DNA of 64,000 bases from Thermoleophilia bacterium. GTDB taxonomy: Bacteria > Actinomycetota > Thermoleophilia > RBG-16-64-13. The position numbers and the translations under genes are program-made. The stretch's first letter is position 1; each line of letters begins with the position of its first letter. Below the pieces are notes generated by a model. It was given only the letters and a program-made list of their open reading frames with translations, was not told where the DNA came from and did no database searches. Positions 1 through 17,141 of the stretch are shown one piece after another. The DNA is taken from positions 1,136,715-1,200,714 of the forward strand of contig JAOSKU010000001.1 in NCBI GenBank assembly GCA_027493445.1, written 5' to 3'.

Positions 1-200
1 AAGTCGACCGTCTGCACCAGCGCGAGGTCGTCGCTCAGTTTGTAGACGGCGGCGTCGTCGGAGGTTCCGGTGCCGACGAGCAGGTTCGGATCCAACGAGG
101 GCGGCAGCAGTGCAATAACCTGCCCCAAGTCCTTGGGGCCGATCTTGCACGCTCAGCCGGAGCCGTGGGAGAGCGTAGTCAGGCGCGGAAGCTCGTTCAT
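1..200 (-). CDS. selD: Selenide, water dikinase SelD (selenoprotein; N-terminal part, runs off the window edge)
   Basis: Manual translation from ATG 200: [69 protein letters not shown]. This is the SelD G(C/U)xCK motif, with TGA (153-155) at the catalytic position. RBS AGGAGG at 205-210. Absent from the ORF track. Confidence 0.96.
122..139 (-). promoter_or_regulatory. Putative bacterial SECIS hairpin of selD
   Basis: GCCCCAA-GGAC-TTGGGGC perfect stem starting 13 nt after the in-frame UGA. Confidence 0.8.
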
Positions 201-382
201 GGCACCTCCTTTCCACTGTGCGGCTCACCGCTCGTCGCAGCGCCCGGCCGGGCGCGGAGATGCGGAGGGGACTGGGAGAAACTACCAGAGAACCGGCCAC
301 CCTGCCACCAGCAGGACCTTCAGGTGAGATCCACACCGGCCGGGAAAGCTCCCCCTCTCAGTTGGGCTGCCCCGCCTTGCTC

Positions 383-416
383 TTGATACTCATACGTACT
401 TGCGATAGGTTTGCAT
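383..416 (+). promoter_or_regulatory. Sigma70-type promoter with overlapping Fur/Nur-type operator
   Basis: TTGATA(383-388)-17 nt-TAGGTT(406-411). TTGCGA-N5-TTGCAT (400-416) resembles the actinobacterial Nur box (TTGCAA-N5-TTGCAA). ATG follows at 422. Confidence 0.55.
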
Positions 417-421
417 ATGCG

Positions 422-871
422 ATGAGTCATCACGCGACGCGAACGCTCCGAGAGCTCGGCTACCGGCTGACCCCCCAGAGAACTCTAGTCTGGGACGCCC
501 TCAGAGAGGCGGGGGGCCACCTGGGCGCCGAGGAGATCTGCGCGCTGGTTCAGAGCCGCTTCCCCAACGTCAACATCTCCACCGTCTACCGCACGCTGGA
601 ACTGCTGGTGGAGCTTCAATTGGTGCGCGAAACCCTCCTCGGACCGGATCGCCGCTACTACGAGATCGAGGAAGACGAGCCCCACCACCACCTGGTCTGC
701 GACCGCTGCGGCGCCGTGCAGCACGTGCACGACGAGGATCTGGGAGGATTGCGCGCCGCCCTGGAGCAGAGGCAAGGGTTCCGCGTGCGCGAGCTGACGA
801 CCTTCGGACTATGCGCCGCCTGCAACGGGCAGGCCGAACCCAACGCAGGAGGGGGCCATGCACATTCCTGA
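422..871 (+). CDS. Fur-family metal-responsive regulator (Nur/Zur-like)
   Basis: RLTPQR, STVYRTL, HHHLVCDRCG and GLCAAC motifs. Start taken at ATG 422 inside the 218..871 ORF. Confidence 0.92.
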   Translation: MSHHATRTLRELGYRLTPQRTLVWDALREAGGHLGAEEICALVQSRFPNVNISTVYRTLELLVELQLVRETLLGPDRRYYEIEEDEPHHHLVCDRCGAVQHVHDEDLGGLRAALEQRQGFRVRELTTFGLCAACNGQAEPNAGGGHAHS

Positions 872-2015
872 CGGGTTTGTGAACGCGCCCACGGCGCTGG
901 CCACCGGTGCGGTCTCGCTGGGGGCGGTAACCCTGGCCCTGCGGCGGGCCGGCCGCAATCTAGGCGAGCGCACGGTGCCCTTGCTGGGTGTGACCGCCGC
1001 GTTCGTCTTCGCCGCCCAGATGCTCAACTTCCCCGTGGCGGCCGGCACGAGCGGGCACTTTCTGGGAGCGGTGCTGGCTGCGGTACTCATCGGCCCGTGG
1101 GCGGCCGTGGTCGTGATGACGGTGGTGCTGGCGGTACAGGCCGTGGGCATGGCCGACGGTGGCATCACCGCCCTGGGAGCGAACGTCTTCAACATGGCGG
1201 TGGTAGCGGGCCTGGGCGGCTACCTAGCCTTCCGCGTTCTGAAAGCCGTTCTCCCTCGAAGCATGACCGGCTACTTCGCCGCCGTGGCCGCCTCTTCGTG
1301 GCTTTCGGTGGTGGTCAGCGCCGCCGTGGTCTCTCTGGAGCTGGCCGCCTCAGGGACCGTGCCCCTGTCGGTGAGCCTGGCCGCCATGACCTCGGTGCAC
1401 ATGATCATCGGCCTGGGGGAGGCGCTCATCACCTCGACCGTGCTGGCTGCCGTCCTGGCCTCCCGACCCGACCTGGTTTCGTCTCCGCCCGCCGACGCGG
1501 CCACCCGGCACGGCACAGGTGGCCCGGCCGGATCTCCCTTTGGTCGCAGGGGTCGGCCGGCCGGCTTCGTCTTGGGGGCCGTGGTGGTCGCCCTGGCATT
1601 GGCCGTGCTGGTGGCCCCTTTCGCCTCTTCGGCGCCTGACGGCCTCGAAAGGGTCGCCGCCGACAAGGGCTTCGGCCAGGCCGCGCGGGAGCCCATCTGG
1701 CGCTTCTCCCCCTTGACCGAGTACAGCCTCCCCGGCATTGCCGACGAGCGGCTGGCCACGTCTCTTGCCGGGCTCCTGGGTGTGGTCGCCCTGCTGGGCG
1801 TGATCCTTCTGGTCGGAAGGGCCTTCGGGCGGAGTCGGCCGCGGGTCGCGCGGCCGGATACCGCCCCCGGCCTCCATCCCATGGCCGGTCACGAGCACAC
1901 CGACCACCGGCACTCGGGTCACACCCACCGCCACCATGTCCACGTGACCGATGCCCCCGGCACGGGCCCCGATCCCGACCACCTCCACGAGGAACCACCA
2001 GGACCGGCACGATGA
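858..2015 (+). CDS. cbiM: ECF Ni/Co transporter S component, CbiM/NikM fused to a PDGLE (NikN) domain, with His-rich tail
   Basis: N-terminal MHIPDG, GTSGH, PDGLE motif, C-terminal HEHTDHRHSGHTHRHHVH. Confidence 0.9.
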   Translation: MHIPDGFVNAPTALATGAVSLGAVTLALRRAGRNLGERTVPLLGVTAAFVFAAQMLNFPVAAGTSGHFLGAVLAAVLIGPWAAVVVMTVVLAVQAVGMADGGITALGANVFNMAVVAGLGGYLAFRVLKAVLPRSMTGYFAAVAASSWLSVVVSAAVVSLELAASGTVPLSVSLAAMTSVHMIIGLGEALITSTVLAAVLASRPDLVSSPPADAATRHGTGGPAGSPFGRRGRPAGFVLGAVVVALALAVLVAPFASSAPDGLERVAADKGFGQAAREPIWRFSPLTEYSLPGIADERLATSLAGLLGVVALLGVILLVGRAFGRSRPRVARPDTAPGLHPMAGHEHTDHRHSGHTHRHHVHVTDAPGTGPDPDHLHEEPPGPAR

Positions 2016-2776
2016 GCGGAGCGCACCATTTTCTCACCGAGGCTCAGTACGGCGATAGTCTGGTACACCGGCTCGACCCCCGGGTCAAGATCATGGGCCT
2101 CATGGGGCTCACAGTGGTCTCCGTGAGTACGCCGGCGGACGCCGTTTGGGCCTTCGCCTCTTACCTCGGGGTGCTTCTGTTCCTACTGGGCCTTTCCCGG
2201 CTGCCGCTTGTCCTGGTGCTTCGTAGGGTGGCGCTGGTGCTGCCTTTCATACTCATGGTGGCCGTGTTTCTGCCTTTCTTCGGGCGAGCGGGGGGTGGCG
2301 GCTACAACGTAGGGAGCGTCCGGATCTCCGGCGCCGGGCTGCTGGTGCTCTGGAACGTGACCGCCAAGGCCACCGTCGGCGTCACGGCCATGACGCTGCT
2401 CGCCTCGACCACCTCTTTCCCCGAGCTTGTGGCCGGACTCGAGCGGCTGCGCACGCCCCGGCTGTTCACGCTGATCGTCTCCTTCATGTACCGCTACAGC
2501 TTTCTGTTCGTGGAGGAGTTTCGCCGCATGCGCCGGGCCATGGAGGCGCGCAACTTCCAGGGCCGCTGGCTGTGGCAGGCGGGCATCGTGGGCCACATGG
2601 TGAGCTCGCTCTTCCTGCGCAGTTACCAGCGTGGAGAGCGCGTCTACCTGGCCATGGTCAGCCGCGGTTACGATGGCAGCATGCGGGCCTCGGCCCCCCT
2701 AGCCCTCCGCCGCGCCGACGCCGCCTTCATCACAGGTCTGGCCACCGTGCTGCTCGCTGTCCGGATCACCGCCTGA
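2012..2776 (+). CDS. cbiQ: ECF transporter T component CbiQ/NikQ
   Basis: HRLDPRVK, MYRY, AMEARNF and AMVSRGY motifs; operon position. Confidence 0.92.
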   Translation: MSGAHHFLTEAQYGDSLVHRLDPRVKIMGLMGLTVVSVSTPADAVWAFASYLGVLLFLLGLSRLPLVLVLRRVALVLPFILMVAVFLPFFGRAGGGGYNVGSVRISGAGLLVLWNVTAKATVGVTAMTLLASTTSFPELVAGLERLRTPRLFTLIVSFMYRYSFLFVEEFRRMRRAMEARNFQGRWLWQAGIVGHMVSSLFLRSYQRGERVYLAMVSRGYDGSMRASAPLALRRADAAFITGLATVLLAVRITA

Positions 2777-2782
2777 CGCGCC

Positions 2783-3526
2783 ATGGAACCGGCCGCCGTC
2801 GACATCGTAGACCTGCACTTCAGCTATCCCGACGGGACACCCGCCCTGTGCGGAGTCAATCTGCGGGTGCAGGCGGGCGAGTCGGTGGCCGTGATCGGCC
2901 CGAATGGGGCAGGCAAGTCGACCCTCCTGCTCCACCTAAACGGCATCCTGCGGGGCCAGGGCCAGGTATGCATCTTCGGCGTGCGGGTCCAGGACGGCAC
3001 CCTGCGCGAGATCCGGCGCCGGGTGGGCGTGGTCTTCCAGGACCCCGATGACCAGCTCTTCCTCACCAGTGTGGCCCAGGACGTGGCCTTCGGTCCCAGC
3101 AACATGAGGCTCTCTGAGGAGGAGATCGCGCGGCGCGTGCACGAATCCCTGGCCGCCGTGGACATGCAGGCCTTCGGCGATCGGGCGGCTCACCACCTCT
3201 CCTTCGGCCAAAAGAAGCGGGTGGCTACGGCCACCGTCCTCTCCATGCAGCCCGACCTTCTGGTTCTCGACGAGCCCTCGGCTAACCTGGACCCTCGAGC
3301 TCGGCGCCAGCTGGTGCGGATTCTGCGGGGGCTCCCGGTGACCAAGATCATCGTCACCCACGACTTGCCCTACGCGTACGAGATATGCGAACGGGCGGTG
3401 ATCCTGTCGGGAGGCCGAGTGGCGGCAGACGGGCCCATCGACGATATCCTGGGCGACGGCGAGCTTCTCGACAGCCACGACCTGGAACTCCCCTACGGCT
3501 TCGCCGTCGCCGGAGCGCGCTCATGA
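2783..3526 (+). CDS. cbiO: ECF transporter ATPase CbiO/NikO
   Basis: GPNGAGKST, FQDPDDQL, LSFGQKKR, LVLDEP. Confidence 0.93.
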   Translation: MEPAAVDIVDLHFSYPDGTPALCGVNLRVQAGESVAVIGPNGAGKSTLLLHLNGILRGQGQVCIFGVRVQDGTLREIRRRVGVVFQDPDDQLFLTSVAQDVAFGPSNMRLSEEEIARRVHESLAAVDMQAFGDRAAHHLSFGQKKRVATATVLSMQPDLLVLDEPSANLDPRARRQLVRILRGLPVTKIIVTHDLPYAYEICERAVILSGGRVAADGPIDDILGDGELLDSHDLELPYGFAVAGARS

Positions 3527-6651: not shown

Positions 6652-7490
6652 TTCCCCCGATCGCGAGCCCCCTCGCCGGGCTCGAGCGGCGCCTGCGCAC
6701 TCTGACCGGCAGTTGCGGGATGCACGCTCTGGGCATCGCCGACATGACGCCCGAGCCGGTGCAGGCCGCCGTGGCGGCCACCGGGGGTCGGTGGCTCTCG
6801 GCCTTTCCCCGCGCGGTCTCCGTCGTGTTTCGACTACAGAACGCCATCGTCGAAGAGCTCCCCGACCACCACCGGGAAAAGGCCCTTGCCCGTCTGTACG
6901 AGTTCCACATCTACAGGGTGGGCAACCCGCACCTCGACCAGGTGGCCACCAGAATCGCCACGGAAATTCAGGAGGCGGGGTATCGAGCGGTACCGGTGCC
7001 CACCTCGGTCGCGGTCGACGGAGGAAGCGGCACGGGAGGCTTCTTGGGCGCCGTGTCACACAAGATGGCCGCCCATCTGAGCGGCCTTGGCTGGATCGGC
7101 CGGAGCTGCTTGCTTGTGACTCCCGACGTCGGACCCCGGGTACGCTTGGCCACCGTCATGACCGACGCCCCCTTCGCGGCAAGAACGCCGGCGGACGCCG
7201 GCTGCGGCCGCTGCCGCATCTGCGTGCGGGCCTGCCCGGCGCAGGCTTTCTCCGGCAAAGCCTTCGACCCGGCCGACCCCATCGAAGCCCGCATGGATGT
7301 GCGCGCTTGCGAGGCCTACCGGCAGGAGGCCAAGACTCTCACCGGGGTACCCATGTGCGGCGTGTGCGTAGCGGTCTGCCCCCACGGAAAGCCCGGCAGA
7401 AGACTTACGCCTCCTCCCGCACCCCCAGGCGCCGGCCGATATCGCGCGCCACCTCCCGGGCCGAGGGGAAGTCGTGAATCTCCCCTTTAG
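6648..7490 (+). CDS. 4Fe-4S protein of the epoxyqueuosine reductase / reductive dehalogenase-like family
   Basis: [47 protein letters not shown] overlaps the dcd stop. Confidence 0.8.
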
Positions 7491-7995
7491 CGTCCACGCC
7501 TGGACAGAGAAGCTCGCCTGCCGGCTCCACCTCGAGCACGTGCCAGAAGTATCTCATGACCTGGCGGGCCCCGTCGAAAACCGTCGAATAGGTGGTGCCG
7601 GCGCAGCATAGGAAGCCCCCCAAACGCCGGGGCCGCCCCGGTTCGATGAGCGGCCGGCGCAGGACGTACTTGATGGCCCAGAAAGGCTGGCAGCGATCGA
7701 TCATGGCCTTGGCCTGGGCGGCCAGGCCCATGGAGAAGATCGGCGCCGCCAGGATGATGCTGTCCGCCCCACGCAGCAGAGGATAAAGCTCTTCCATGCC
7801 GTCTTCCACGATGCAGGCACCCCCGTCGAAACACCCGTCGCAGGCGATGCACGGATTGACTTCGAGCTCGCGCAGGCGCAGCTTGGTCACTTCGGCGCCG
7901 GCCTCGCCGGCCGCTTCCAGGGCCCAGTCGAGCAGGGTCTCTGTGTTTCCCTTGCGTCGAGGGCTGGTGGCCAGGCCCAGGACCTTCACGCTCAC
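7405..7995 (-). CDS. Iron-sulfur flavoprotein / NADPH-dependent FMN reductase family
   Basis: SPRRKGNT, PCIACDGC...C, APIF, KAMIDR. Confidence 0.88.
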   Translation of the reverse strand: MSVKVLGLATSPRRKGNTETLLDWALEAAGEAGAEVTKLRLRELEVNPCIACDGCFDGGACIVEDGMEELYPLLRGADSIILAAPIFSMGLAAQAKAMIDRCQPFWAIKYVLRRPLIEPGRPRRLGGFLCCAGTTYSTVFDGARQVMRYFWHVLEVEPAGELLCPGVDAKGEIHDFPSAREVARDIGRRLGVREEA

Positions 7996-8002
7996 CGGAG
8001 GC

Positions 8003-9356
8003 TCACTTCGGAACCCGAGCCCTGAAGCCCACATCGCCTTGCTGCAGAGTCAGGTCGGTCCCGCACACCGGGCACGTAACCAGATCGCCCTCGCGGGCCC
8101 CCTCGCCAGCTGGATCTCATGCTTGCAGACCGGGCACTGGACTCCTTGGTAAGCCGTGCGGTAGGTCAGATCGAACATCTGGTGGAGCAGGCCGGAAGGC
8201 AGCTGGTCTTTGCGCAAGCCCCGCTGGATGGCCTCCTCCAAGGCACCGGCTTCGGCGATGCTGCCCAGCAGCAAGGCTCCGACCAGCACCTCGTCCCGGT
8301 CGAAGATCAGCTTCTTGTAGAACTCGCCGACGGGATAGTCCCCCCGCATCTCGCTCAGGCCGGAGCGGTAGGCGGCGACCGTCTGGCCGAGGGCCACCAG
8401 ACTCAGGCCCAGCACCTGCATGTTGAGCACGTCGATCTCGGAGCCCCCTCGACAGCGTCGCCGGCGAGCGCCGCTCCAGCGGCCGCACCCTGCCGCCATG
8501 AGCGCAGCCAGTTGAAGTAGTTCTTGGCGCTGCCCACGGTCACGTCGCCCGCGGCGTAGATACCTTGCCATGGCGTGGCGAAGCGGGCGTCGACCTTGAA
8601 ACCGAAGCCCTCCTCGGGGAGGAAATCTACGGCCGGCGTGTACTCCGCACATACTCCAACGACGTCGGCCAACACTTTGTCGCCCCCGGCCAGGACCAGG
8701 CCCACCGCGCGGCCGTCGCGCCCTTCCACGGCCTCGACGGCCGCTCCCAGCACCAGCTCGGCGCCGCTGGCCCGTACGCGGGCGGCCGCGATCTCAGCGG
8801 CATCTTGGTCCAGGACCTCCGGCCATAGACGCTCGGTGGGCACGAGGTAGGTGGTTTTGAAGCCCGCTCCGGTCAGCGCCCGCACCATCTCGAGGGCCAC
8901 CAGACCGTTCCCGTAGACCAGACCGGTCTGGCCGGCCCCGTCAAGCCCGCGGATCGCCCGGGCCTCGTCCAAGGTCTTGAAGCAGTTGATGCCGGCCAAG
9001 TCGCCGCCCTGGAGGCCTCCCGCCGAAAGGCGGCGGCCGGTGGCCACCAGCATGGCGTCGTAGGAAAGGGTCGTCCCGTCCCCGAAAGTGACCTTTTGTG
9101 CGGCGACGTCCACTCCGGCCACCCGGCTCGAGAGGCGCACATCCAGGCGCTGCTCCTGATAGAACTCCTTCCGCTTCCCCCAAAGACGCGCTTCACCCAC
9201 CGATCCCGAGGCAAAGTCGGCTAGTTGGGGACGGCGGTAGAACGGATAGGCCTCTTCGGTCACCACCGTGATCTCCGCGTCATCCCGGCGTCGCCGAAGC
9301 ATTTCGGCCGCCCGCATTCCGGTGACGCCGTTCCCGACGATGAGGTACCTCGCCAT
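8003..9356 (-). CDS. FAD/NAD(P)H oxidoreductase (NirB / rubredoxin-reductase-like) with C-terminal CPVC...CPVC ribbon; two apparent frameshifts
   Basis: IVGNGVTG, ATG and IYAAGD motifs. The frame continues after a G-run near 8445 (YKKLIFD...LVGALLLG) and again after a G-run near 8100 (GAREGDLVTCPVCGTDLTL...VPK*). Confidence 0.8.
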
Positions 9357-9529
9357 CCCCGCACTCCTTCCCTCGGACGATCCACTGCTCCCGCAACATG
9401 CCTAGTGTACCAGCCGACCCCCGCCCGGTCAGACCGAACACGAGGATCGGAACCCCCACCGGGAGGTTCTGTGCGTTGGCATAAACAAAACCCCTTGTGC
9501 AGCCGGCCCTGTTCCGTTACACTGCCTAC

Positions 9530-10261
9530 ATGACCATCCCAGCGCCATTCTCTCCCGCCGAGGAGCTCGACCTCCTGGCCGACGCCTTGGGTGACCCCAC
9601 CAGGAGGGCCATTTTCAAGTACGTAGCCGAGGCGCTTGAACCGGTCACCGCCGCCGACGTTGGCGTCACCTTCGGGGTCCACCGCACGGTGGCCCGCTCC
9701 CACTTGGAGAAGCTGACCGACACCGGCCTGCTCGAGGCGGAGTTCCGCCACCGCGCCGAGGGCGGCCGTCCGCCCAAGGTGTACTCCCGGGGCGAGCGCC
9801 GGCTCGACCTGCAGCTGCCGGTGCGCCAGTACGAAACCCTCGCCGAGCTCCTGCTCAGCACTCTCGAGCACTTCGGAGACGCGGCCGAGATCATCGCCGA
9901 CCAGGTAGGCTATGCCTTCGGGCAGCGACTGTCGACCCTCCATGCACCCGCCAGGTCCCCTCTGGCCGCCCTGATCGAGGCTGGAGCGAACATCTCGTTG
10001 GAGCACGACGGCGATCGACTGCGCGTCGAAGTGCACGACTGCCTCTTCAGGGAGGTGGCCACCCGCCGGCCTCGCCTGGTCTGCACCCTCGATCGAGCCG
10101 TCCTGCGCGGACTGCTCTCGGCCGTAGAGGGTGAGGTAGTTCTGTGCGAGGCCTCCCGCCGGGACGAGTGCCGGGATGTCTGCTCCTTGAGCTACGAGAA
10201 GAAGCCCTCAACCGCGGGAACGCGCGACACCCCTGACCCCCCGATAGGAGGACACGCATGA
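9530..10261 (+). CDS. ArsR/SufR-like winged-HTH regulator with Cys-rich C-terminal domain
   Basis: ALGDPTRRAI, ARSHLEKL, GGRPPKVY, HDCLF...CTLD...C...C. TTGTGC-17-TACACT lies 6 nt before ATG 9530, so probably leaderless. Confidence 0.8.
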   Translation: MTIPAPFSPAEELDLLADALGDPTRRAIFKYVAEALEPVTAADVGVTFGVHRTVARSHLEKLTDTGLLEAEFRHRAEGGRPPKVYSRGERRLDLQLPVRQYETLAELLLSTLEHFGDAAEIIADQVGYAFGQRLSTLHAPARSPLAALIEAGANISLEHDGDRLRVEVHDCLFREVATRRPRLVCTLDRAVLRGLLSAVEGEVVLCEASRRDECRDVCSLSYEKKPSTAGTRDTPDPPIGGHA

Positions 10262-10908
10262 TCATCACCAAGCAGAAGCCCCTCGAAGACATCATCGAGA
10301 TGGTCGCCAAGTACAAGCACCTCTTCTACGTGGGTTGCGGCCAGTGCTCCACCCAGTGCCAGACCGGGGGCGAGTGGGAAATCGAGGAACTGAGCAGGCT
10401 CCTGGAGGAGGAAGGCCACAGGACCAGCGGCTCGACCGTGGTCTACGCCCCCTGCCATGAACTCGACACCAAGCGCCACTTCCGCAAGCACAAGGAGCAG
10501 CTGGCGCGCACCGACGCGGTGATCGTCATGAGCTGCGGCGCGGGCGTGCAATCGGCGGTTGAGGGCACCGACCTCCCCGTATTCCCCTCGAACGACAGTC
10601 TCTTCTTGGGGAACTCCCAGCGCCACATGCACTTCGAGGAAAAGTGCTCCACATGCGGCGAATGCGTGCTGCAGTGGACCGGAGGCATCTGCCCGGTGAC
10701 CCGCTGCCCGAAGGGTCTCCTCAACGGGCCCTGCGGGGGTACGAACCACGGCAAGTGCGAAGTCGATAGCGACAGGCCCTGTGCTTGGACCCTCATCTAC
10801 GAGCGTCTGGAGAGCCTGGGCGAGCTCGACATGTTCCGCAAGATCCAGCCGCCCAAGAACTACGCGGCTGTCAAGAGGCCTGGCCTCATGCGGGAAGAGG
10901 TGCGATAG
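10258..10908 (+). CDS. MetV-like protein (methylene-THF reductase C-terminal/small-subunit family, Cys-rich)
   Basis: MIITKQKP, GCGQCSTQCQTGG, SCGAGVQ, CPVTRCPKGLLNGPCGG, CAWTLIYERL. Confidence 0.85.
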   Translation: MIITKQKPLEDIIEMVAKYKHLFYVGCGQCSTQCQTGGEWEIEELSRLLEEEGHRTSGSTVVYAPCHELDTKRHFRKHKEQLARTDAVIVMSCGAGVQSAVEGTDLPVFPSNDSLFLGNSQRHMHFEEKCSTCGECVLQWTGGICPVTRCPKGLLNGPCGGTNHGKCEVDSDRPCAWTLIYERLESLGELDMFRKIQPPKNYAAVKRPGLMREEVR

Positions 10909-10953
10909 CCCCCCGCACAAGCTGTCCGCTCGATCGCGGATGCGGGAGAACGC

Positions 10954-10991
10954 GGCGAGGGCCGCCCCGGTGATCCGGGGCGGCCCTCGCC
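10954..10991. terminator. Strong hairpin between convergent genes (bidirectional terminator-like)
   Basis: GGCGAGGGCCGCCCCGG-TGAT-CCGGGGCGGCCCTCGCC, perfect 17-bp stem. Confidence 0.7.
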
Positions 10992-11027
10992 CTCTCTGCC
11001 TCGTAGTCTCCGCCCTGAAGCAGGGAG

Positions 11028-12236
11028 TTACCGCCCCCAGGCCTTGACCCGTCGCGCAACCTCCCGCCCGTAGTCCACGCAGGCCTCGAGATCGTCTTCG
11101 GTGGGCACATACTTGAGCTCCAGGGGGTCCATGACGTCCAGCCCGAGCTCCTCGAGGCCGGCGCTGATGAGCTTGGCCGCCCCTCCACCCCAGCCGTAGG
11201 AACCGTAGGCTCCAACCAGGCGGTTCTTGGGGCGCAGCCCCCTGATATAGGTGAGGAAGGCGCCCACCGTGGGGAGCATTCCGTTGTTCAGAGTGGGCGA
11301 ACCCACCACGAAGGCGCGGTGCCCGAGCACGGCCCGAGCCACGTCGGCCAGGGCCGAGTGGTTCAGGCGGAAGACCGAGCACTCCACGCCCTCTTGGGCG
11401 ATGCCGTCCTCGATGGCCCGGGTCATCTTTTCGGTCGACTGCCACATCGTGTCGAATACAAGGGCCACCCGAGCCGGCGCCTCGAAGCGGCTCCAGCCGA
11501 CGTAAGCCTCGATGACCCGGGCCACGTCCTCGGACCGCCTCCAAATGACCCCGTGACTGGGTGCGATGACGTCGAACTCGAGCCCCAGCTCTCCCACCTG
11601 TTTCACCAGCTTCTGCACCTGGTTGCCGAAGGGCATGAGGATATTGGCGTAGTACTTGGCGGCCTCGTCGAGAGCGAGGTCGAGGCCGACCTCATCGGCG
11701 AAGCGCCGGGAGCTGGCCAGGTGCTGCCCGAAGCCGTCGTTGGACAGCAGGACCTTGGGCTCTTTGACGTACGTGAGCATGCTGTCGGGCCAGTGGAGCA
11801 TGGGTACCTCGAGGAAGGTGAGCGTATAGCGCCCGATGGACAGCTCGTCGCCGGTGCCGACCACGGTGATGTCCCAATCCTGGACGCCCTCACCATGGTA
11901 CAGGAGCAAGAGGGCATCCTTCGCCCGCCTCGAACAGAAGATCTGAACGTCACCGAGCTGCTTCATGAGCGACGGGATCGCTCCCGAGTGATCCATCTCC
12001 ACATGGTTGACGACCAGGTAGTCGATCTCGCGGGGTTCGCAGCAGGCGCGCACGCGTCGCAGCAGCTCGGGCCCGAATCCGGAGCGCACCCCGTCGACCA
12101 GCACCTTCTTCTCATCGGTGATGAGATACGCGTTGTACGTGGTGCCCCGCGGCGTCTCGTACCCGTGGAAGTCGCGGACATTCCAGTCGATGGCTCCCAC
12201 CCACCAGATCTCTTCCTTCAGCTGATATCTCTCCAT
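11028..12236 (-). CDS. fprA: Flavodiiron protein (FprA/Roo, class A)
   Basis: GTTYNAY, NHVEMDHSG, LHWPDSM, SNDGFGQH, APSHG and a flavodoxin domain with GSPTLN and GSYGW. Confidence 0.95.
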   Translation of the reverse strand: MERYQLKEEIWWVGAIDWNVRDFHGYETPRGTTYNAYLITDEKKVLVDGVRSGFGPELLRRVRACCEPREIDYLVVNHVEMDHSGAIPSLMKQLGDVQIFCSRRAKDALLLLYHGEGVQDWDITVVGTGDELSIGRYTLTFLEVPMLHWPDSMLTYVKEPKVLLSNDGFGQHLASSRRFADEVGLDLALDEAAKYYANILMPFGNQVQKLVKQVGELGLEFDVIAPSHGVIWRRSEDVARVIEAYVGWSRFEAPARVALVFDTMWQSTEKMTRAIEDGIAQEGVECSVFRLNHSALADVARAVLGHRAFVVGSPTLNNGMLPTVGAFLTYIRGLRPKNRLVGAYGSYGWGGGAAKLISAGLEELGLDVMDPLELKYVPTEDDLEACVDYGREVARRVKAWGR

Positions 12237-12444
12237 GCCTCCACCTCTGGCGTCGTTACAAACAACCGGCTGCGCGATCACGCTAACGGAGGCTGGGTCG
12301 GCAAATGTGCGCTCCCGGGGTCACCCAAGCGCACTCACCGAGCCCCCGCCCGGCAAAGTCAGGCTCGAATGATAGCCGACCGGCCGGACAGAAGCCTGGT
12401 GAGTCATGTTCGCGCGGGCCCGCACTACAGTCGAGAGCGGCTTC

Positions 12445-12657
12445 TCAGGAAGCAGCCCCCTCGATGCAGTAGTACTCGCCCGTCAAGTCGTAGTCGATGG
12501 TAACGGGGCAGTCGGCGCAGAGGCACCCCCGCCTTTGAACGCCGGCCGAGCTGGCACCTCGGGCGCAGTAGAAACTCTTCAGCTCATCGGGCTTGCTGGG
12601 ACAGTCGCCGCACAGGCAGCGCCCGGCGTTCTCGGGAGTGTCGAGGACCATGGACAC
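12445..12657 (-). CDS. DUF2769-like small Cys-rich protein
   Basis: CLCGDCPS...FYCARG...GCLCADCPV...YYCIEG; AGGAG RBS. Confidence 0.75.
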   Translation of the reverse strand: MSMVLDTPENAGRCLCGDCPSKPDELKSFYCARGASSAGVQRRGCLCADCPVTIDYDLTGEYYCIEGAAS

Positions 12658-12665
12658 CGGGACTC

Positions 12666-13160
12666 CTACGCAATCTCGAGAATCTTCTCCTTGGGCGAGG
12701 TGCAGACAACGCAATGATCGGGGACGTCGTTCTCGTAGGTCATCCCACACACCTGACACACGTAGAACCGGGACTCGCTCAGGTCGCCCATCGCTCCCAG
12801 AGCCTCGGCGAACATCTTCTCGTGGAACTTCTCCGCCTCGTTGGCCGCATGGAAGGAGAAACGGGCGTCGTCGTCGCCTTCCTTCTCCGCTTGAGCGATG
12901 AACTCCGGATACATGGTCGCATGCTCGTAGTTCTCTCCGCCGATGGAACCTTCGAGGTTCTCAGCCGTGCTCTTGACCCCGCCCATCGTCTTCAGATGGT
13001 TGATGGCATGCACGGTCTCGGACTCCGCCGCCACGCGGAAGCGCTTCGCCACCTGGGGATACCCTTCCTCGTCCGCCTTCCGCGCGTAGGCCAAATACCT
13101 CCGGTTCGCCTGCGATTCACCCGCGAACGCGTCCTTCAGGTTGCCGATGCTGTTGCCCAT
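12666..13160 (-). CDS. rbr: Rubrerythrin
   Basis: NLKDAFAGESQANRRY, ETVHA, MYPEF, EKFH, CQVCG...CVVC. Confidence 0.94.
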   Translation of the reverse strand: MGNSIGNLKDAFAGESQANRRYLAYARKADEEGYPQVAKRFRVAAESETVHAINHLKTMGGVKSTAENLEGSIGGENYEHATMYPEFIAQAEKEGDDDARFSFHAANEAEKFHEKMFAEALGAMGDLSESRFYVCQVCGMTYENDVPDHCVVCTSPKEKILEIA

Positions 13161-13322
13161 TGAACTGATGCTCCTTTCCGATTCTCTCGACTCGCGCCCC
13201 TCGTGCCACTGGCCGCCGCGGCAGCCTCGACCTCGAAGAGAGCCCTTACCCGGGCCAGATGACAAGGTAACCGCACCTTGAGGCTAATAAACCTCATCTT
13301 TCGCCGAAAAAAGCAAATATCT

Positions 13323-14315
13323 CTACCCAGCCTTCCGGCCCAGAATCAGCTGGTTCTGACTGTTCGTAAGATCGAGAACACGCACGTCAGCGAAGCCGGC
13401 GTCAGTCAACCAGGCCTGGAAGTCCGACTCGCGCCATACGCCTCCCTCCTCCGTCGCCTGCAGCATGTTCACTGCAAACATGGCCGCGCGCTCGCTGCGC
13501 TCCCATACGAAATCGCGGATGGCGATGACGCCACCTGGTCCCAAGACCGCATGCACTCGGGCGCTCAGAGCGGAGTTGGTGTGCGGCCCGTAGATGTGGT
13601 AGACGTTGCCCAGATACGCCAGACCAAAGGGGCCTGGGGGCAACCCTTCCCGAAAGTCGCCTCCCAGCAGGTCGATCCGCTCGGTCCACCCCCCCAGATA
13701 CCTACGCGCCTCGGGCAGCACATCGGGCCGGTCGAAGAGTGTGGCGCGCAGCCCTTTCTCTGCGAAGCGCCGGGCCATGTGGCCCACGGCCCCCCCGATG
13801 TCGATCATGGAGTACGGAGCGGGCGAGCCTGCCTCCCGCCCCTCGCCGGCGTATCGGAGGCAACGATCGACCACCTCATCCATCACCGCCGAGTCGCCTT
13901 CGGCCATCGTGCGCACGAAACTGCGTAGGTCGCGTTCCTCGGGATCGCGCTCGGGAGGACTGCCGAAACGCACGATGTGCGGCAGGTCGAGCCAACCCCG
14001 AACCTTGCGCGCCTGGTGCAGCAGCGACGAGCGCTCCACGTCGGGACCCGGTGGGACCCCGGGAGGCGAATCCAGTAGATGGGCCTTCCCCAGGTCGGTC
14101 AGGCGATAACCCGCGGGCCCGTGCGCGGCCACCCCGAGGGCGACTAGGGCTTCCAGCATGACCCGGCAGGCCCGTTCGTCACCTCCCACGGCTCGGGCCA
14201 CGTCGTCCGGCTCGGCGGGCGATCCTTGAGCTAGGGCATCGACCAGGCCCGCCTTGATGGCGGCGGTCAGCACCAGAAGCTTCTCCACCTCGTGGCGGTC
14301 GACCAGAGAGGTCAC
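13323..14315 (-). CDS. Class I SAM-dependent methyltransferase (O-methyltransferase family with dimerisation HTH)
   Basis: MIDIGGAVG, LFDRP, GDF, GNVYH, PGG. GTG overlaps the glutaredoxin stop (GTGA). Confidence 0.88.
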   Translation of the reverse strand: MTSLVDRHEVEKLLVLTAAIKAGLVDALAQGSPAEPDDVARAVGGDERACRVMLEALVALGVAAHGPAGYRLTDLGKAHLLDSPPGVPPGPDVERSSLLHQARKVRGWLDLPHIVRFGSPPERDPEERDLRSFVRTMAEGDSAVMDEVVDRCLRYAGEGREAGSPAPYSMIDIGGAVGHMARRFAEKGLRATLFDRPDVLPEARRYLGGWTERIDLLGGDFREGLPPGPFGLAYLGNVYHIYGPHTNSALSARVHAVLGPGGVIAIRDFVWERSERAAMFAVNMLQATEEGGVWRESDFQAWLTDAGFADVRVLDLTNSQNQLILGRKAG

Positions 14316-14623
14316 CGCTGCCCCAACTCTTCCTCGCTCTCCCCTGGATCGACCCCCAGCAGCTCGGCGATGTCACGGCGGTTGACCTCGAAGCCCCAAA
14401 ACACCCGCCGCCCGATGATGATGGCGGGCGTGGCCACTCGGCCGAACTCCCGCATCATGGTCTCCTTCACCGCCTCCCCGGAGGTCACGTCGTGCTCCAC
14501 CGTCTTCACCCCGTGCTCGGCGAAGTAACTCCTCGCCGCCTGGCAGTCCAGTCAGGAGGGGGAGTGGTAGAGCACCACCGGCCCGGTCTCGCGACGGCCC
14601 AACATTCGCTCGAAAAGCCCCAC
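14312..14623 (-). CDS. Glutaredoxin/NrdH-like selenoprotein (UxxC)
   Basis: GTG 14623: MGLFERMLGRRETGPVVLYHSPS-UGA-LDCQAARSYFAEHGV...ATPAIIIG...WGF. TGA at 14552-14554 occupies the first Cys position of CxxC. Hairpin at 14518-14538. Confidence 0.9.
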
Positions 14624-14626
14624 AGG

Positions 14627-15769
14627 CTATCCCCTCTCGATGGGCAGTCCGGCCTCGGTCCAGTCGTCGATGCCGCCCGCGTAGTCGGAGACATCGGCGT
14701 ACCCTAGCTGTCGCAGCTTATCAGCCGCGATGGCGCTGGCTTCTCAGGTGAAGTCGTTGCAGTAGACGATGATCTTCTCGTCCTTCCGGTAGCGCTTGCG
14801 CGCCTCGCGCGTAAGACTGCGGAAGTCGATCCACTCGGCTCCGGGCAGGTGACCGCGGCCCCAGTGGTCCTCTCCCAGCACGTCGACCAGGTGGAACTCC
14901 GTCCCGGACTGCATCAACTCCCAGAGCTGCTCGCGGGAGATCACTGGTACGCTTGGCCGCCCGGCCGTCTGATCGTAGAAGATGAGATAGCTGGCCGCCG
15001 TGTAGTAGCCGGCCTGCCGGAACACCTGGAGCTTGCGGGCATCGCGGGCGTCGACCACGGCCGCGGGGGTGACGTCGTCGCCGGCGACCATCTGCCCGGC
15101 GGTCTGCACGGCCCAGACCAGCACCTGGTCGCCCACGTGCGGCGCGAGCACGTCGAGCAGGCAGTACCGCTCACCCTGACTCCGCTCCCGGATCACCAGG
15201 CCGATGGCCTGGTCATGGTCGGTGACGACCCAGTGGCTGTCGTTCTCGATCTCCTGCTCGAGCTCGCTGTACGTGGGAGCCTGCTGGACACCGCGGGCGT
15301 GGAGCACGAGGTCGTGGGCCGCCCGCAGATGGGGGTAATCCATCGGCACCAGCGCCAATCCCTCGAGCTTCTGGGGAGGGAAAGTAGCCCGAGCGACCAG
15401 CACCGACATGCTCACCTCCATCGAGAAACCCTCGGCGATTAGGGCCGTCTCGAAGGTGCAGTCGTCGCTCCGCACGAGATAGGCGCGAGGAGCAAGCTCC
15501 TCACTGATCAGATCGAGCATGTCCTCGTAGCGGTCTCGGTAGGGCGGCGTGAGATACCCTTCGATCAGGGTCACGTGGTCGTGGCCTTCGTGTTTGTCGA
15601 AAAGGAGAAGCGCGTATCCCACCGTGCTGGCCCCGTCCCTCACGGCAAACGTGTCGGCATGATGGGCCAGGTGGACGTGAAAGCTGGGGAGCAAGGGCAC
15701 GTGGAACGTCCGGAGCTTCTCGGCCCTCATCTCGGCGATGGCTTTGGCATCAGTGCGTTCGAGCTGCAC
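14627..15769 (-). CDS. Rhodanese-domain selenoprotein with a long (possibly GNAT-like) N-terminal region
   Basis: LVDVLG...GHLPGA...IIVYCNDFT-UGA-EASAIAADKLRQLGYADVSDYAGGIDDWTEAGLPIERG*. Read-through of TGA 14744-14746 restores the rhodanese C-terminus. Hairpin at 14711-14730. Confidence 0.88.
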
Positions 15770-15831
15770 ACACACCCCTTTCTGGAGACCCGCCACTGCA
15801 CGCGGCATACCCGCAGAGGGCGGGGACCTAA

Positions 15832-16048
15832 CAGGCCGTTGAAGAATGACGCTTCGCCGTCAGGCTGCAATGGGCGCGGGCGAGGCCAGAGCTCGGTTTG
15901 GAATGACGCTCGCCCTCAGGCTGCAGTGGGCGCGGGCGAGGCAAGGACGCAGGGAGCGGGCGTAGCGGAGCTACGGACGTGACCGAGGACGCCGCATCGG
16001 GCCGCCCAGTGCAGCCCGGTGGCTGGGGCTTCGTTTTTCAACGGCCTG
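15832..16048. mobile_element. MITE-like palindromic repeat, copy 1
   Basis: Ends CAGGCCGTTGAAGAA...TTTTTCAACGGCCTG flanked by a CTAA direct repeat; core shared with copies at 20269 and 26921. Confidence 0.75.
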
Positions 16049-16106
16049 CTAACGCAGAAGGGCCCTCGCCGCCCTGAGGAATGCCGCCAGGCGGTACACT
16101 TGGTTC

Positions 16107-17141
16107 ATGGAGGACCGCATGCGCCAAGAAGCCGTGCGCAGTCGCTTCCAGGGCGCCCTGCTGGGCACGTTCGCCGGCGACGCGCTGGGGATGCCCCTGG
16201 AAGGGATGACGCCCCAAGCCATCGCCCACCGCTACGGTGTCGTGCGCGATCTGCTCCCGGCCCGTTTGGGCCGGGGCACCTACACCGACGACACCGAGAT
16301 GACCATCGCGGTGGCCGAGTCGCTGGTTGCATGCCGGGGGTTCGACGGGCCCCACATGGCCGGGCGGTTCCTGCACACGGCCGAGCGGCGGAGGGGCTAC
16401 GGCCGCGGCACGCTCGAGGCCCTTCAGCGGTTGGCCGCGGGCGTCCCTTGGGACCAGGCCGGGGCGGGCACGTTCGGCAGCGGCTCGTTCGGCAATGCCG
16501 GAGCTACGCGCGTCGCCCCAATCGCCCTCCTGTACCACTCCAATCTGGCTGCCGTAGCCGACCTGGCCCGCGCCTCGTCGGAGATCACCCACGCTCACCC
16601 GCTAGGCCGCGGGGGAGCGGCCGTCCAGGCAGTAGCCATCGCCCTCGCTCTCTGCGCCGGTCTCGAGCCGCCAGCCGGCGCCCGCCCCGAACTGTTCATC
16701 GAGACCATCGAGCATCGACTGCTCCCTCAGGAGGCCCTCTACCGAGAAGGCCTGGAGAAGGTGGTCATGATGCTGGAGCGGTGTCCACCCCTGCCGCTCG
16801 AGGCCTCCGACCATGACCGAGCCGGTCAGGCCGCCAGGGTGGCGGCCGTGCTGGGCAACGACAGCCGAGCGTTCACGTCGGTACCGGCCGCGCTCTACTC
16901 ATTCTTGGCCTACGCTCACTCTTTCGAGTTGGCGGTGACGACCGCGGTCGCTCTAGGCGGAGACACCGACACCATCGCCGCCATGACCGGGGCTCTCGCG
17001 GGCGCCTATCACGGTGTGGGCGCCATCCCCGAGCGCTGGCGCCGCAGTCTGGAGTCGGGCCCCCGCGGACGGGACTACGTCGCCGGCCTCGCCGACGACC
17101 TTTTCCTACTCTGGTTGGAACGCTACGCCGATGTCTGCTGA
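16107..17141 (+). CDS. ADP-ribosylglycohydrolase family protein
   Basis: GDALG, YTDDT, GNAG, GGDTDTIAAMTGALAGA. Confidence 0.92.
   Translation: MEDRMRQEAVRSRFQGALLGTFAGDALGMPLEGMTPQAIAHRYGVVRDLLPARLGRGTYTDDTEMTIAVAESLVACRGFDGPHMAGRFLHTAERRRGYGRGTLEALQRLAAGVPWDQAGAGTFGSGSFGNAGATRVAPIALLYHSNLAAVADLARASSEITHAHPLGRGGAAVQAVAIALALCAGLEPPAGARPELFIETIEHRLLPQEALYREGLEKVVMMLERCPPLPLEASDHDRAGQAARVAAVLGNDSRAFTSVPAALYSFLAYAHSFELAVTTAVALGGDTDTIAAMTGALAGAYHGVGAIPERWRRSLESGPRGRDYVAGLADDLFLLWLERYADVC

Follow-up and report, generated by a model that had tools for sequence, protein, structure and literature searches.

What do two adjacent genes, each interrupted by an in-frame UGA codon, encode, and what would their products do beside a methyltransferase and a series of oxygen-related redox enzymes? 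This question is raised by a 64,000-nt stretch of the genome of a Thermoleophilia bacterium (GenBank assembly GCA_027493445.1, contig JAOSKU010000001.1, positions 1,136,715 to 1,200,714), referred to below as the window. Three genes are at issue: gene 1, in which a rhodanese domain follows a region resembling Gcn5-related N-acetyltransferases (GNATs); gene 2, a glutaredoxin-like gene; and gene 3, encoding a putative S-adenosylmethionine (SAM)-dependent methyltransferase. A first-pass annotation, made from the sequence alone, had described these genes as tightly packed, and this was borne out: all three lie on the minus strand, the TAG of gene 1 is separated from the GTG of gene 2 by a 3-nt gap, the TGA of gene 2 overlaps the GTG of gene 3 (GTGA), and the motifs Y-C-N-D-F-T-U-E-A-S and U-L-D-C, in which U stands for selenocysteine (Sec), are both present. 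The conclusion that stands on solid ground is that gene 1 is a new variant among already known selenoprotein kinds, situated in a conserved operon. The locus set was obtained by scanning one genome per species, which gave 32 gene 1 loci; 12 loci retrieved in a separate genome search appear to be among them. The glutaredoxin count, which takes in the window, is out of 33. Residues of gene 1 are numbered in P0001, its 393-aa form, in which U355 corresponds to U342 counted from the GTG start.

Reading of the two in-frame UGA codons

The proposal that both genes are selenoprotein candidates is supported by Sec/Cys pairs, by SECIS-like hairpins (SECIS, selenocysteine insertion sequence) and by complete Sec machinery, and it is considered very probable that gene 1 and gene 2 both encode selenoproteins. 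The Sec column of gene 1 reads TGA in 31 of the 32 motif-bearing sequences (30 loci and the window) and TGT in the remaining one, L060; L064 was left out of this count, its locus being cut by the contig end. Proteins of the family are 37–82% identical to the gene 1 product of the window, and the UGA column is nonetheless kept; the arrangement lies far beyond chance. Read with translation table 11, gene 1 ends at 14744–14746, and read-through adds U-E-A-S-A-I-A-A-D-K-L-R-Q-L-G-Y and onward, with 38 residues past the UGA before the TAG is reached. These 38 residues are conserved in frame in the alignment, and in the AlphaFold2 (AF2) model the fold is completed by them. Furthermore, homologues with cysteine at the UGA positions, which the first-pass annotation had named as a check on its proposal, were found for both genes. 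Natural Cys forms of gene 1 are present in the database as P0048 and P0049 (C-N-G-F-[SR]-C-E-A-G) and P0039 (C-N-G-L-A-C-E-A-G), in addition to L060, and among the 11 loci with a glutaredoxin the Sec column of gene 2 reads TGA in eight, TGC in two and TGT in one, giving eight UxxC and three CxxC motifs.

The Sec machinery of the host genome comprises a tRNA-Sec (74 bits; ARAGORN anticodon TCA) together with selA, selB and selD, all of which score above curated cut-offs. The N-terminus of selD, the selenophosphate synthetase gene, lies in the window itself (1–200, minus strand; G000:C1:1135976–1136899) and contains an in-frame TGA of its own at 153–155 (G-S-G-U-A-C-K). Past the gene 1 UGA, a 7-bp hairpin was found to be invariant in 31 sequences (RNAalifold). 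Two observations weigh on the other side: the stem, being invariant, shows no covariation, and single-sequence folds after the two UGAs were not better than shuffles (z −0.44 and −1.07). Because an invariant stem offers no covariation to follow, the gene 1 SECIS was inferred from a synonymous-site constraint that vanishes with Sec. At hairpin codons +8 to +12, the family uses GAT (30/30), AAG (30/30), CTG (29/30), CGA (30/30) and CAG (26/27), and elsewhere in this stretch the choice of Asp and Arg codons varies freely; the Cys-form locus L060 reads GAC AAG CTG AGG CAA at these codons, and the constraint is gone. In gene 2, three of the 10 hairpin pairs show compensatory change (RNAalifold, eight sequences), and the support for this hairpin appears weaker than that for the hairpin of gene 1. 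Codons other than TGA in sequencing reads had been named beforehand as a sign that would speak against selenoproteins. Contigs from runs X5 and X7, which belong to studies other than the probable source, span both UGA codons with 0 differences, and runs X9 and X10 show no change at the UGA codons among the matches listed.

If the UGAs were ordinary stops, gene 1 would encode a 341-aa protein with a truncated rhodanese, and the glutaredoxin open reading frame would be a 65-aa remnant. This is how automated annotation treats the locus: the database entries P0055 and P0057 end at the UGA, the consensus of the aligned entries does likewise, and most of the listed database entries of the gene 1 family are 340–342 aa long. 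Such entries confirm that standard gene calling breaks gene 1. As a biological account, ordinary termination is almost certainly wrong, since it is opposed by the in-frame conservation of the fold-completing residues past the UGA, by Cys codons at the same column in both genes, by a hairpin with frozen synonymous sites, by the full Sec machinery of the genome, and by the observation that gene 1 was not found in genomes where selA was not found. A different calling problem is seen in P0043 (380 aa), where the public call departs from the gene 1 frame at about residue 260, continues in the wrong frame over the rhodanese region and terminates within the glutaredoxin frame (...V-I-Y-H-S-P-T); a frameshift in the contig or an error of gene calling is the probable cause.

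Architecture of the gene 1 protein

The N-terminal region of gene 1 had been described as possibly tandem GNAT-like, and structure prediction supports this description. The AF2 model (39-row alignment) has a predicted local distance difference test (pLDDT) score of 90.6 and a predicted template-modelling (pTM) score of 0.73, and contains two GNAT-type alpha/beta repeats, at residues 14–139 and 151–278, in addition to the rhodanese domain. When the N-terminal region was compared by Foldseek, the match 3iwg was obtained at E 1e-15 with a TM-score on the target of 0.77–0.79. Further matches included VipF, a clostridial glucosamine N-acetyltransferase, a tandem GNAT of the clavulanate pathway and MshD, as well as MprF; the tandem-GNAT matches range in E-value from 1e-15 to 3e-8, at 10–14% sequence identity. 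By sequence the region has hardly any relatives. No Pfam GNAT profile exceeded its cut-off, the best being Acetyltransf_19 (14.9 bits vs 23.8), which occurs below threshold in 17 of 39 family members (E up to 5, best 7e-4). An N-terminal profile search of 1.84 billion representatives returned 31 proteins at E <= 0.001; most are family members or fragments, eight are stand-alone proteins of tandem-GNAT size (271–294 aa), and none is named.

In acetyltransferases of this fold, the motif R/Q-x-x-G-x-G/A between beta4 and alpha3 forms the acetyl-CoA pyrophosphate loop. The stand-alone relatives P0211, P0214, P0219, P0223 and P0225 keep R-x-x-G-x-G/A in the second repeat. In the rhodanese-fused family, a two-residue deletion is found at the second-repeat loop and R/Q-x-x-G-x-G/A is absent from both repeats, while R-[ST]-D-D is common to the fused family and the stand-alone relatives. 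The existence of these rare loop-bearing relatives suggests that a true acetyltransferase was the ancestor of the fused family. In addition, the first GNAT repeat of the fused family contains the invariant residues H76, H78, E83, E95, D115 and C117, with H73 and D96 nearly invariant. Because the acetyl-CoA loop was lost and a new invariant set was gained, the GNAT region is probably a remodelled, non-acylating binding module.

The rhodanese domain is recognised by Pfam with 59.7 bits against a cut-off of 22.2. Cys350 aligns with the catalytic cysteine of the Y-C motif in 6mxv and 3tp9 and is invariant in 39/39 sequences. Classical sulfurtransferase rhodaneses carry a six-residue active-site loop, C-R-x-G-x-[RT], from which gene 1 departs: its loop, C-N-D-F-T-U-E-A-S, is two residues longer than the loops of 6mxv and 3tp9, and also two residues longer than in the nearest stand-alone short rhodaneses, which read Y-C-G-G-G-[FY]-R-S. 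Searches against NCBIfam placed nothing above cut-off for gene 1 (NF041203, 42.9 vs 115; NF045694, 35.1 vs 805), and no nucleic-acid-binding domain was detected by Pfam and NCBIfam scans of the three proteins.

The glutaredoxin-like protein and the methyltransferase

Gene 2 matches the Pfam family Glutaredoxin (PF00462) with 42.6 bits against 22.9 and stays below the NCBIfam cut-offs for the YruB family (TIGR02196, 50.8 vs 88.55) and for Uxx-star (NF041212, 36.2 vs 66). Its occurrence is restricted to the clade closest to the window, where it was found in 10 loci and the window itself. A thioredoxin-reductase-like (TrxR-like) gene belongs to the same clade, and the two were both seen in eight loci.

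The assignment of gene 3 to the O-methyltransferase family was upheld by two Pfam families above their cut-offs, Methyltransf_2 (PF00891, 45.7 bits vs 22.3) and Dimerisation (PF08100, 36.2 vs 25.6), and the protein is accordingly placed by similarity in the plant-type or natural-product O-methyltransferases. Sequence matches in the PDB comprise MmcR, MfnG, HIOMT, RedM, SibL and DSYB, with E-values of 1e-13 to 1e-10. Across 38 sequences, D172, G174, G175, D195, D220 and H240 are invariant; the SAM motif D-x-G-G-x-x-G and the acidic residues for ribose and adenine are kept, and H240 aligns with the corresponding His of HIOMT and MmcR. On this evidence the methyltransferase is predicted to be catalytically intact. 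The same 38 sequences contain no invariant cysteine, and no NCBIfam model was matched, those for arsenite, tellurite and thiopurine methyltransferases included. ArsM-type As(III) methyltransferases have conserved metalloid-binding cysteines, and the lack of an invariant Cys here speaks against an ArsM-like metalloid enzyme.

Methyltransferase homologues were found in 24/24 genomes of the family, including G006, G010, G014, G015 and G023, in which gene 1 was not detected; in four of these five (G006, G010, G014 and G023) the methyltransferase lies beside the genes for the flavodiiron protein FprA and/or a flavin mononucleotide (FMN) reductase. Because it is present without gene 1 and in genomes where selA was not found, the methyltransferase is not a dedicated partner of the selenoproteins, and the first-pass view of it as the third member of a dedicated system did not hold. 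A complex prediction for a natural Cys-form protein with its methyltransferase neighbour gave a score of 0.00, the mark being 0.32, which speaks neither for nor against a complex. In G015, which is without detectable selA, the methyltransferase (locus L079, G015:C6, 4971–7581, minus strand) is located directly downstream of His_biosynth and IGPD genes instead of FprA. Outside the family, methyltransferase homologues identified by tBLASTn (L083–L085, 34–37% identical) have no common neighbours.

Distribution and conserved neighbourhood

All 32 gene 1 loci come from metagenome-assembled genomes (MAGs) labelled Thermoleophilia, Gaiellales or Actinomycetota, and the family appears confined to MAGs of the Thermoleophilia/Gaiellales type. 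The expectation of a conserved three-gene synteny was confirmed in one part and not in the other. Of the 32 loci, 31 have the methyltransferase downstream of gene 1, and the remaining one is cut by a contig end; in loci lacking the glutaredoxin, the two genes are a few to about 30 nt apart. The glutaredoxin itself takes part in the arrangement in only 11 of 33 loci. Further downstream, FprA follows the methyltransferase in 28 of 32 loci, and three of the other four end before that point. L060 contains DUF2769 and FMN reductase genes, with FprA absent. Of the 32 loci, 10 have a rubrerythrin gene after the methyltransferase and 13 a DUF2769 gene; an FMN reductase gene is found in 18, and the TrxR-like gene is seen in 10. 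In the window, the placement of the three genes upstream of rubrerythrin and FprA on the same strand is as previously noted, with the DUF2769 gene between the latter two. The DUF2769 protein contains C-x-C-x-x-C-P repeats and may be an electron carrier or a metal-binding partner of FprA. Across the 32 loci the cluster holds no other biosynthetic genes that are conserved, and no ars, ter or other metalloid genes occur among the Pfam-scanned neighbours (window 218–28537). The conserved neighbourhood is that of an oxygen and peroxide defence operon.

Gene 1 was not found with this query in G010, G014 and G015, each 96% complete, where selA was also not found; conversely, selA is present and gene 1 was not found in genus g6 (G006 and G023) and in four other families of the class. 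It follows that gene 1 depends on selenocysteine and not the reverse. As the genomes behind it are few and related to one another, the pattern is suggestive and not statistical. It suggests that a methyltransferase–FprA–FMN reductase core was extended by gene 1 as a Sec-needing addition and by the glutaredoxin as a further one. A role of gene 1 in general selenium delivery for selenoprotein synthesis was considered and rejected, given selA without gene 1 in those four families and in genus g6. In five of six genomes examined (G000, G005, G007, G012 and G019), selD and gene 1 share a contig and are 4–18 kb apart; in G004 selD is on another contig, and in L048 it is found about 0.7 kb after the FMN reductase gene. 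The linkage between selD and gene 1 is loose and recurrent.

Comparison with known systems

Rhodanese-like selenoproteins have been described in five forms, namely UxxS, UxxG, CxU (NF041203), a further UxxG and the UxxxxU of TsoB (NF045694), as given in the accessible part of PMC13188914, and a UxU form is mentioned in the accessible part of an older paper (PMC1976440). Gene 1 resembles these proteins in having Sec in or beside the active-site loop, and its C-x4-U spacing equals the UxxxxU spacing of TsoB. By score, it falls far below the cut-offs of both NF041203 and TsoB. Unlike the listed rhodanese selenoproteins, it keeps the canonical Cys and adds Sec at +5, and its rhodanese domain is fused behind a tandem GNAT, a form of which the same part of PMC13188914 contains no instance. 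The U-E-A-S segment of gene 1 also reads as UxxS, so its domain and that of the UxxS form may be related. A literature search returned no paper on a GNAT–rhodanese selenoprotein, a C-x4-U rhodanese or a methyltransferase–FprA operon, although the supplementary tables of the reviews, which lay outside the search, may list more rhodanese forms. Together with the NCBIfam results, this agrees with the earlier statement that no described pathway has this architecture.

Glutaredoxin selenoproteins with UxxC are already known, as stated in the accessible parts of PMC13188914 and PMC9312934. Gene 2 is like them in being a small thioredoxin-fold protein with UxxC, in having Cys-form orthologues and in lying next to a selenoprotein that it may reduce. 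The Sec-glutaredoxin of Clostridium is said to reduce a Sec-MsrA, a case of 'tandem use of Sec'. Gene 2 differs from it in that its presumed partner is of rhodanese type and not MsrA, and in being limited to one subclade.

Gene 1 shares with the tandem GNATs 3iwg, MshD, VipF and the clostridial glucosamine N-acetyltransferase the presence of two GNAT repeats per chain, and differs from them in lacking the acetyl-CoA loop and in having the new invariant His/Glu/Asp/Cys set. Gene 3 resembles members of PF00891 (MmcR, MfnG, HIOMT/ASMT, RedM, SibL and DSYB) in its dimerisation domain, SAM motifs and catalytic His, and is unlike described PF00891 enzymes in being located before FprA and an FMN reductase, a placement for which no report was found. 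In anaerobes such as Clostridium and Desulfovibrio, oxidative-stress operons combine rubrerythrin, a flavodiiron protein and a YruB-type redoxin. The locus is similar, since rubrerythrin, FprA, an NAD(P)H flavin reductase and a small redoxin occur together; to our knowledge, those Clostridium and Desulfovibrio operons do not hold a GNAT–rhodanese selenoprotein or an O-methyltransferase.

Proposed function and alternative readings

The reading preferred here is that the gene cluster opens an operon with which Thermoleophilia of the Gaiellales type, living as anaerobes or microaerophiles, defend themselves against oxygen and peroxide, and that a Cys/Sec redox or chalcogen-transfer module serves this operon; the reading is put forward tentatively, at a probability of roughly 0.45. 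The Cys350/Sec355 pair on the enlarged rhodanese loop would act as the redox or chalcogen-transfer centre. Either the rhodanese Cys would take up an atom of sulfane sulfur or selenium, or Sec would be oxidised by peroxide or persulfide arising where oxygen meets a sulfidic medium. Attack by the neighbouring residue would then produce a Cys-S-Se-Sec bridge with release of the reduced product. This bridge would be reopened by the adjacent NrdH/YruB-like glutaredoxin, itself reduced by the TrxR-like enzyme, and in loci without the glutaredoxin general thiol reductases would take over the step. The GNAT region would carry out no acyl transfer and would provide a ligand-binding or docking module, in which the His/Glu/Asp/Cys cluster of the first repeat may hold a metal or a substrate. 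Finally, the methyltransferase would cap a small nucleophile belonging to this stress response. That nucleophile may be supplied or modified by gene 1, on which the methyltransferase does not depend, and such a supply is the weakest step of the model.

Several points weigh against this proposal. Every chemical step in it is inferred, and we know of no rhodanese for which peroxidase or reductase activity dependent on Sec has been demonstrated. Gene 1 and the methyltransferase gene lie so close together that a two-step pathway of their own would be a better fit than a loose tie to stress, and the part played by the methyltransferase in oxygen defence is left unexplained. Moreover, the adjacency to rubrerythrin and FprA might come from synteny inherited within one family, whose members are kin and not independent. 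In a bolder version, which is distinctly unlikely, gene 1 and the methyltransferase would constitute a Sec-dependent chalcogen-handling pathway that is switched on with the oxygen-reducing enzymes: exposure to oxygen would give rise to sulfane sulfur, or to selenium in elemental or oxidised form, which the C-x4-U loop would capture and hand on to an acceptor held by the GNAT region, and the resulting thiol or selenol would be methylated. If true, the outcome would be either a volatile compound or a new antioxidant in the form of a methylated thio- or seleno-metabolite, and this would represent a new sulfur/selenium methylation route or selenometabolite synthesis tied to oxygen defence.

Three other accounts have to be set beside the defence-operon proposal. 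Under the relay put forward in the first-pass annotation, sulfur, selenium or a metalloid would be mobilised on the rhodanese and, once reduced by the glutaredoxin, methylated by the methyltransferase for detoxification or volatilisation; this relay is regarded as unlikely. It can draw on the adjacency of gene 1 and the methyltransferase at very short gaps, on the retained catalytic His and SAM motifs with a distant relation to the S-methyltransferase DSYB, and on the vicinity of selD in five of six genomes and in L048. The lengthened loop recalls the Cdc25/Acr2 branch of the rhodanese fold, and the rhodanese-fold arsenate reductase Acr2 is itself reduced by glutaredoxin. On the other side, the glutaredoxin is present in a minority of the loci, and the methyltransferase is independent of gene 1 and of the Sec trait, being present in every family genome and beside FprA and/or FMN reductase in four of five genomes without gene 1. 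As for metalloids in particular, the methyltransferase lacks an invariant Cys, unlike ArsM, matches none of the arsenite, tellurite or thiopurine methyltransferase models and has no ars or ter genes among its scanned neighbours, so that metalloid methylation as originally suggested is not supported. The persistence of the methyltransferase without gene 1 likewise opposes the biosynthesis of a small thiol or selenol antioxidant or cofactor. In that scheme, an acceptor resembling an amino acid or a sugar would be bound by the GNAT region, receive sulfur or selenium from the rhodanese and be completed by the methyltransferase. Anaerobic ergothioneine synthesis offers a precedent, as it combines the methyltransferase EanA with the rhodanese-type sulfur transferase EanB. 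The gene 3/gene 1 pair does not belong with EanA/EanB, since gene 3 falls in PF00891 and not in an EgtD/EanA-type family, and since gene 1, with its one rhodanese domain after GNAT repeats, differs in architecture from EanB. A biosynthetic role would nevertheless suit a locus in which a fold of ligand-binding type is fused to a rhodanese and closely linked to a small-molecule methyltransferase; the nearest solved methyltransferases (MfnG, SibL and HIOMT) act on amino-acid-like or aromatic small molecules, the GNAT neighbours in Foldseek include glucosamine N-acetyltransferases and the mycothiol synthase MshD, and an antioxidant product would fit placement in an oxidative-stress operon. Given that both repeats lack the acetyl-CoA loop and that the cluster has no other conserved biosynthetic genes, this account is judged quite improbable.

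It is also quite improbable that gene 1 is a sensor of redox or selenium status or a chaperone for the FprA module, or that gene 1 and the methyltransferase modify a macromolecule, as the rhodanese-type TrhO and the O-methyltransferase TrmR do when they make 5-methoxyuridine (mo5U) in tRNA. The degenerate, pseudo-enzyme-like GNAT fold and the dispensability of gene 1 for the methyltransferase–FprA–FMN reductase core would be compatible with such roles, and the tandem-GNAT relatives found by Foldseek include aminoacyl-tRNA-dependent enzymes such as MprF. However, turnover is indicated by the strong conservation of a Cys/Sec pair at the catalytic loop and by the reductase dedicated to it in one clade; the methyltransferase is of a small-molecule family and not of the TrmR family; and no nucleic-acid-binding domain was detected.

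Significance

Current annotation misses this selenoprotein family, and entries P0055 and P0057 lose half of the active-site loop along with the last 38 residues. In the gene 1 protein, Sec would be added beside the catalytic Cys of the rhodanese and not in its place, on an enlarged loop behind a remodelled GNAT scaffold. With gene 2, it would provide a second example of a neighbouring selenoprotein pair in which one member may reduce the other. The strict linkage to an O-methyltransferase-family enzyme and a flavodiiron protein points to an undescribed branch of oxygen or reactive-sulfur defence in the Thermoleophilia, a widespread and almost uncultured group of soil, groundwater and bioreactors. 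Furthermore, because natural Cys forms exist, for instance P0049, whose neighbour is P0195, the system can be tested directly in E. coli with no need for Sec to be inserted.

Locus layout and neighbouring features

The coordinates of the features are collected in Table 1. For gene 1, the GTG at 15769 is the likelier start, over the in-frame ATG at 15808, which would add 13 residues, because the Shine-Dalgarno-like sequence AAAGGGG precedes it and the Met start of the homologues aligns there, and because the first strand of the AF2 model begins there, residues 1–10 of the long form having pLDDT <50. The 380-aa length originally proposed for gene 1 is supported by the same evidence. The rubrerythrin gene probably has its true start at an ATG near 13160.

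Table 1. Features of the locus, in window coordinates.
Feature	Position	Strand	Description
Gene 1	14627–15769	minus	380 aa from GTG at 15769; probable selenoprotein with tandem GNAT-like region and rhodanese
Gene 1 stop	14627–14629	minus	TAG
Gene 1, longest frame	14627–15808	minus	393 aa with UGA read through; ATG at 15808 in frame
Gene 1, tandem GNAT-fold region	14954–15769	minus	P0001 residues 14–285; AF2, Foldseek
Gene 1, rhodanese domain	14654–14935	minus	P0001 residues 292–385; Pfam PF00581, PDB sequence matches 6mxv, 1yt8, 3tp9
Gene 1, Cys350 codon	14759–14761	minus	Canonical rhodanese catalytic Cys position
Gene 1, UGA (U355)	14744–14746	minus	Five residues past Cys350, in I-I-V-Y-C-N-D-F-T-U-E-A-S
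Gene 1, SECIS-like hairpin	14711–14730	minus	7-bp stem UCGCRGC/GCUGCGA, loop NGAUAA; begins 13 nt past UGA
Gene 2	14312–14623	minus	Glutaredoxin-like probable selenoprotein, 103 aa; GTG start, TGA stop 14312–14314
Gene 2, UGA (U24)	14552–14554	minus	U-L-D-C redox motif within S-P-S-U-L-D-C
Gene 2, SECIS-like hairpin	14514–14545	minus	Upper stem GRAG/CUUC, 3-nt loop, plus lower stem
Gene 3	13323–14315	minus	SAM-dependent methyltransferase, 330 aa, GTG start; N-terminal dimerisation (winged-helix) domain
Rubrerythrin	12666–13265	minus	Pfam; downstream of gene 3
DUF2769 protein	12445–12654	minus	Small, Cys-rich; Pfam PF10967, 53.3 bits
FprA-type flavodiiron protein	11028–12281	minus	Pfam; metallo-beta-lactamase-like diiron and flavodoxin domains
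TrxR-like flavoprotein	8403–9356	minus	Pfam
NADPH-dependent FMN reductase	7405–8034	minus	Pfam

A promoter/terminator scan of 10800–16300 found no promoter-like sites. The intergenic region 15829–16051, between gene 1 and a divergent ADP-ribosylglycohydrolase gene (16107–17141), contains copies of an element of about 50 nt, two direct (15844–15889 and 15901–15945) and one inverted (16003–16051). These repeats were considered as an operator of gene 1 and rejected, as the element is dispersed, with at least 50 genome matches at 79–91% identity; it looks like a repeat family of the repetitive extragenic palindromic (REP) kind and not like an operon-specific sequence.

Divergently from FprA, window 9497–10908 (plus strand) encodes an ArsR-type helix-turn-helix (HTH) protein with a long Cys-containing C-terminal extension, followed, with overlap, by a DUF5981 protein, DUF5981 being the domain at the C-terminus of methylene-tetrahydrofolate reductase. 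Where clade-1 loci have this pair, identity to the proteins of the window is 78–88% for DUF5981 and 44–74% for the HTH protein, and the pair might be a regulator of the operon. At the edge of the window (218–3526, plus strand), a Fur-family regulator gene is followed by CbiM, CbiQ and ATP-binding cassette (ABC) ATPase genes of a cobalt/nickel transporter of the energy-coupling factor (ECF) type, divergent from selD.

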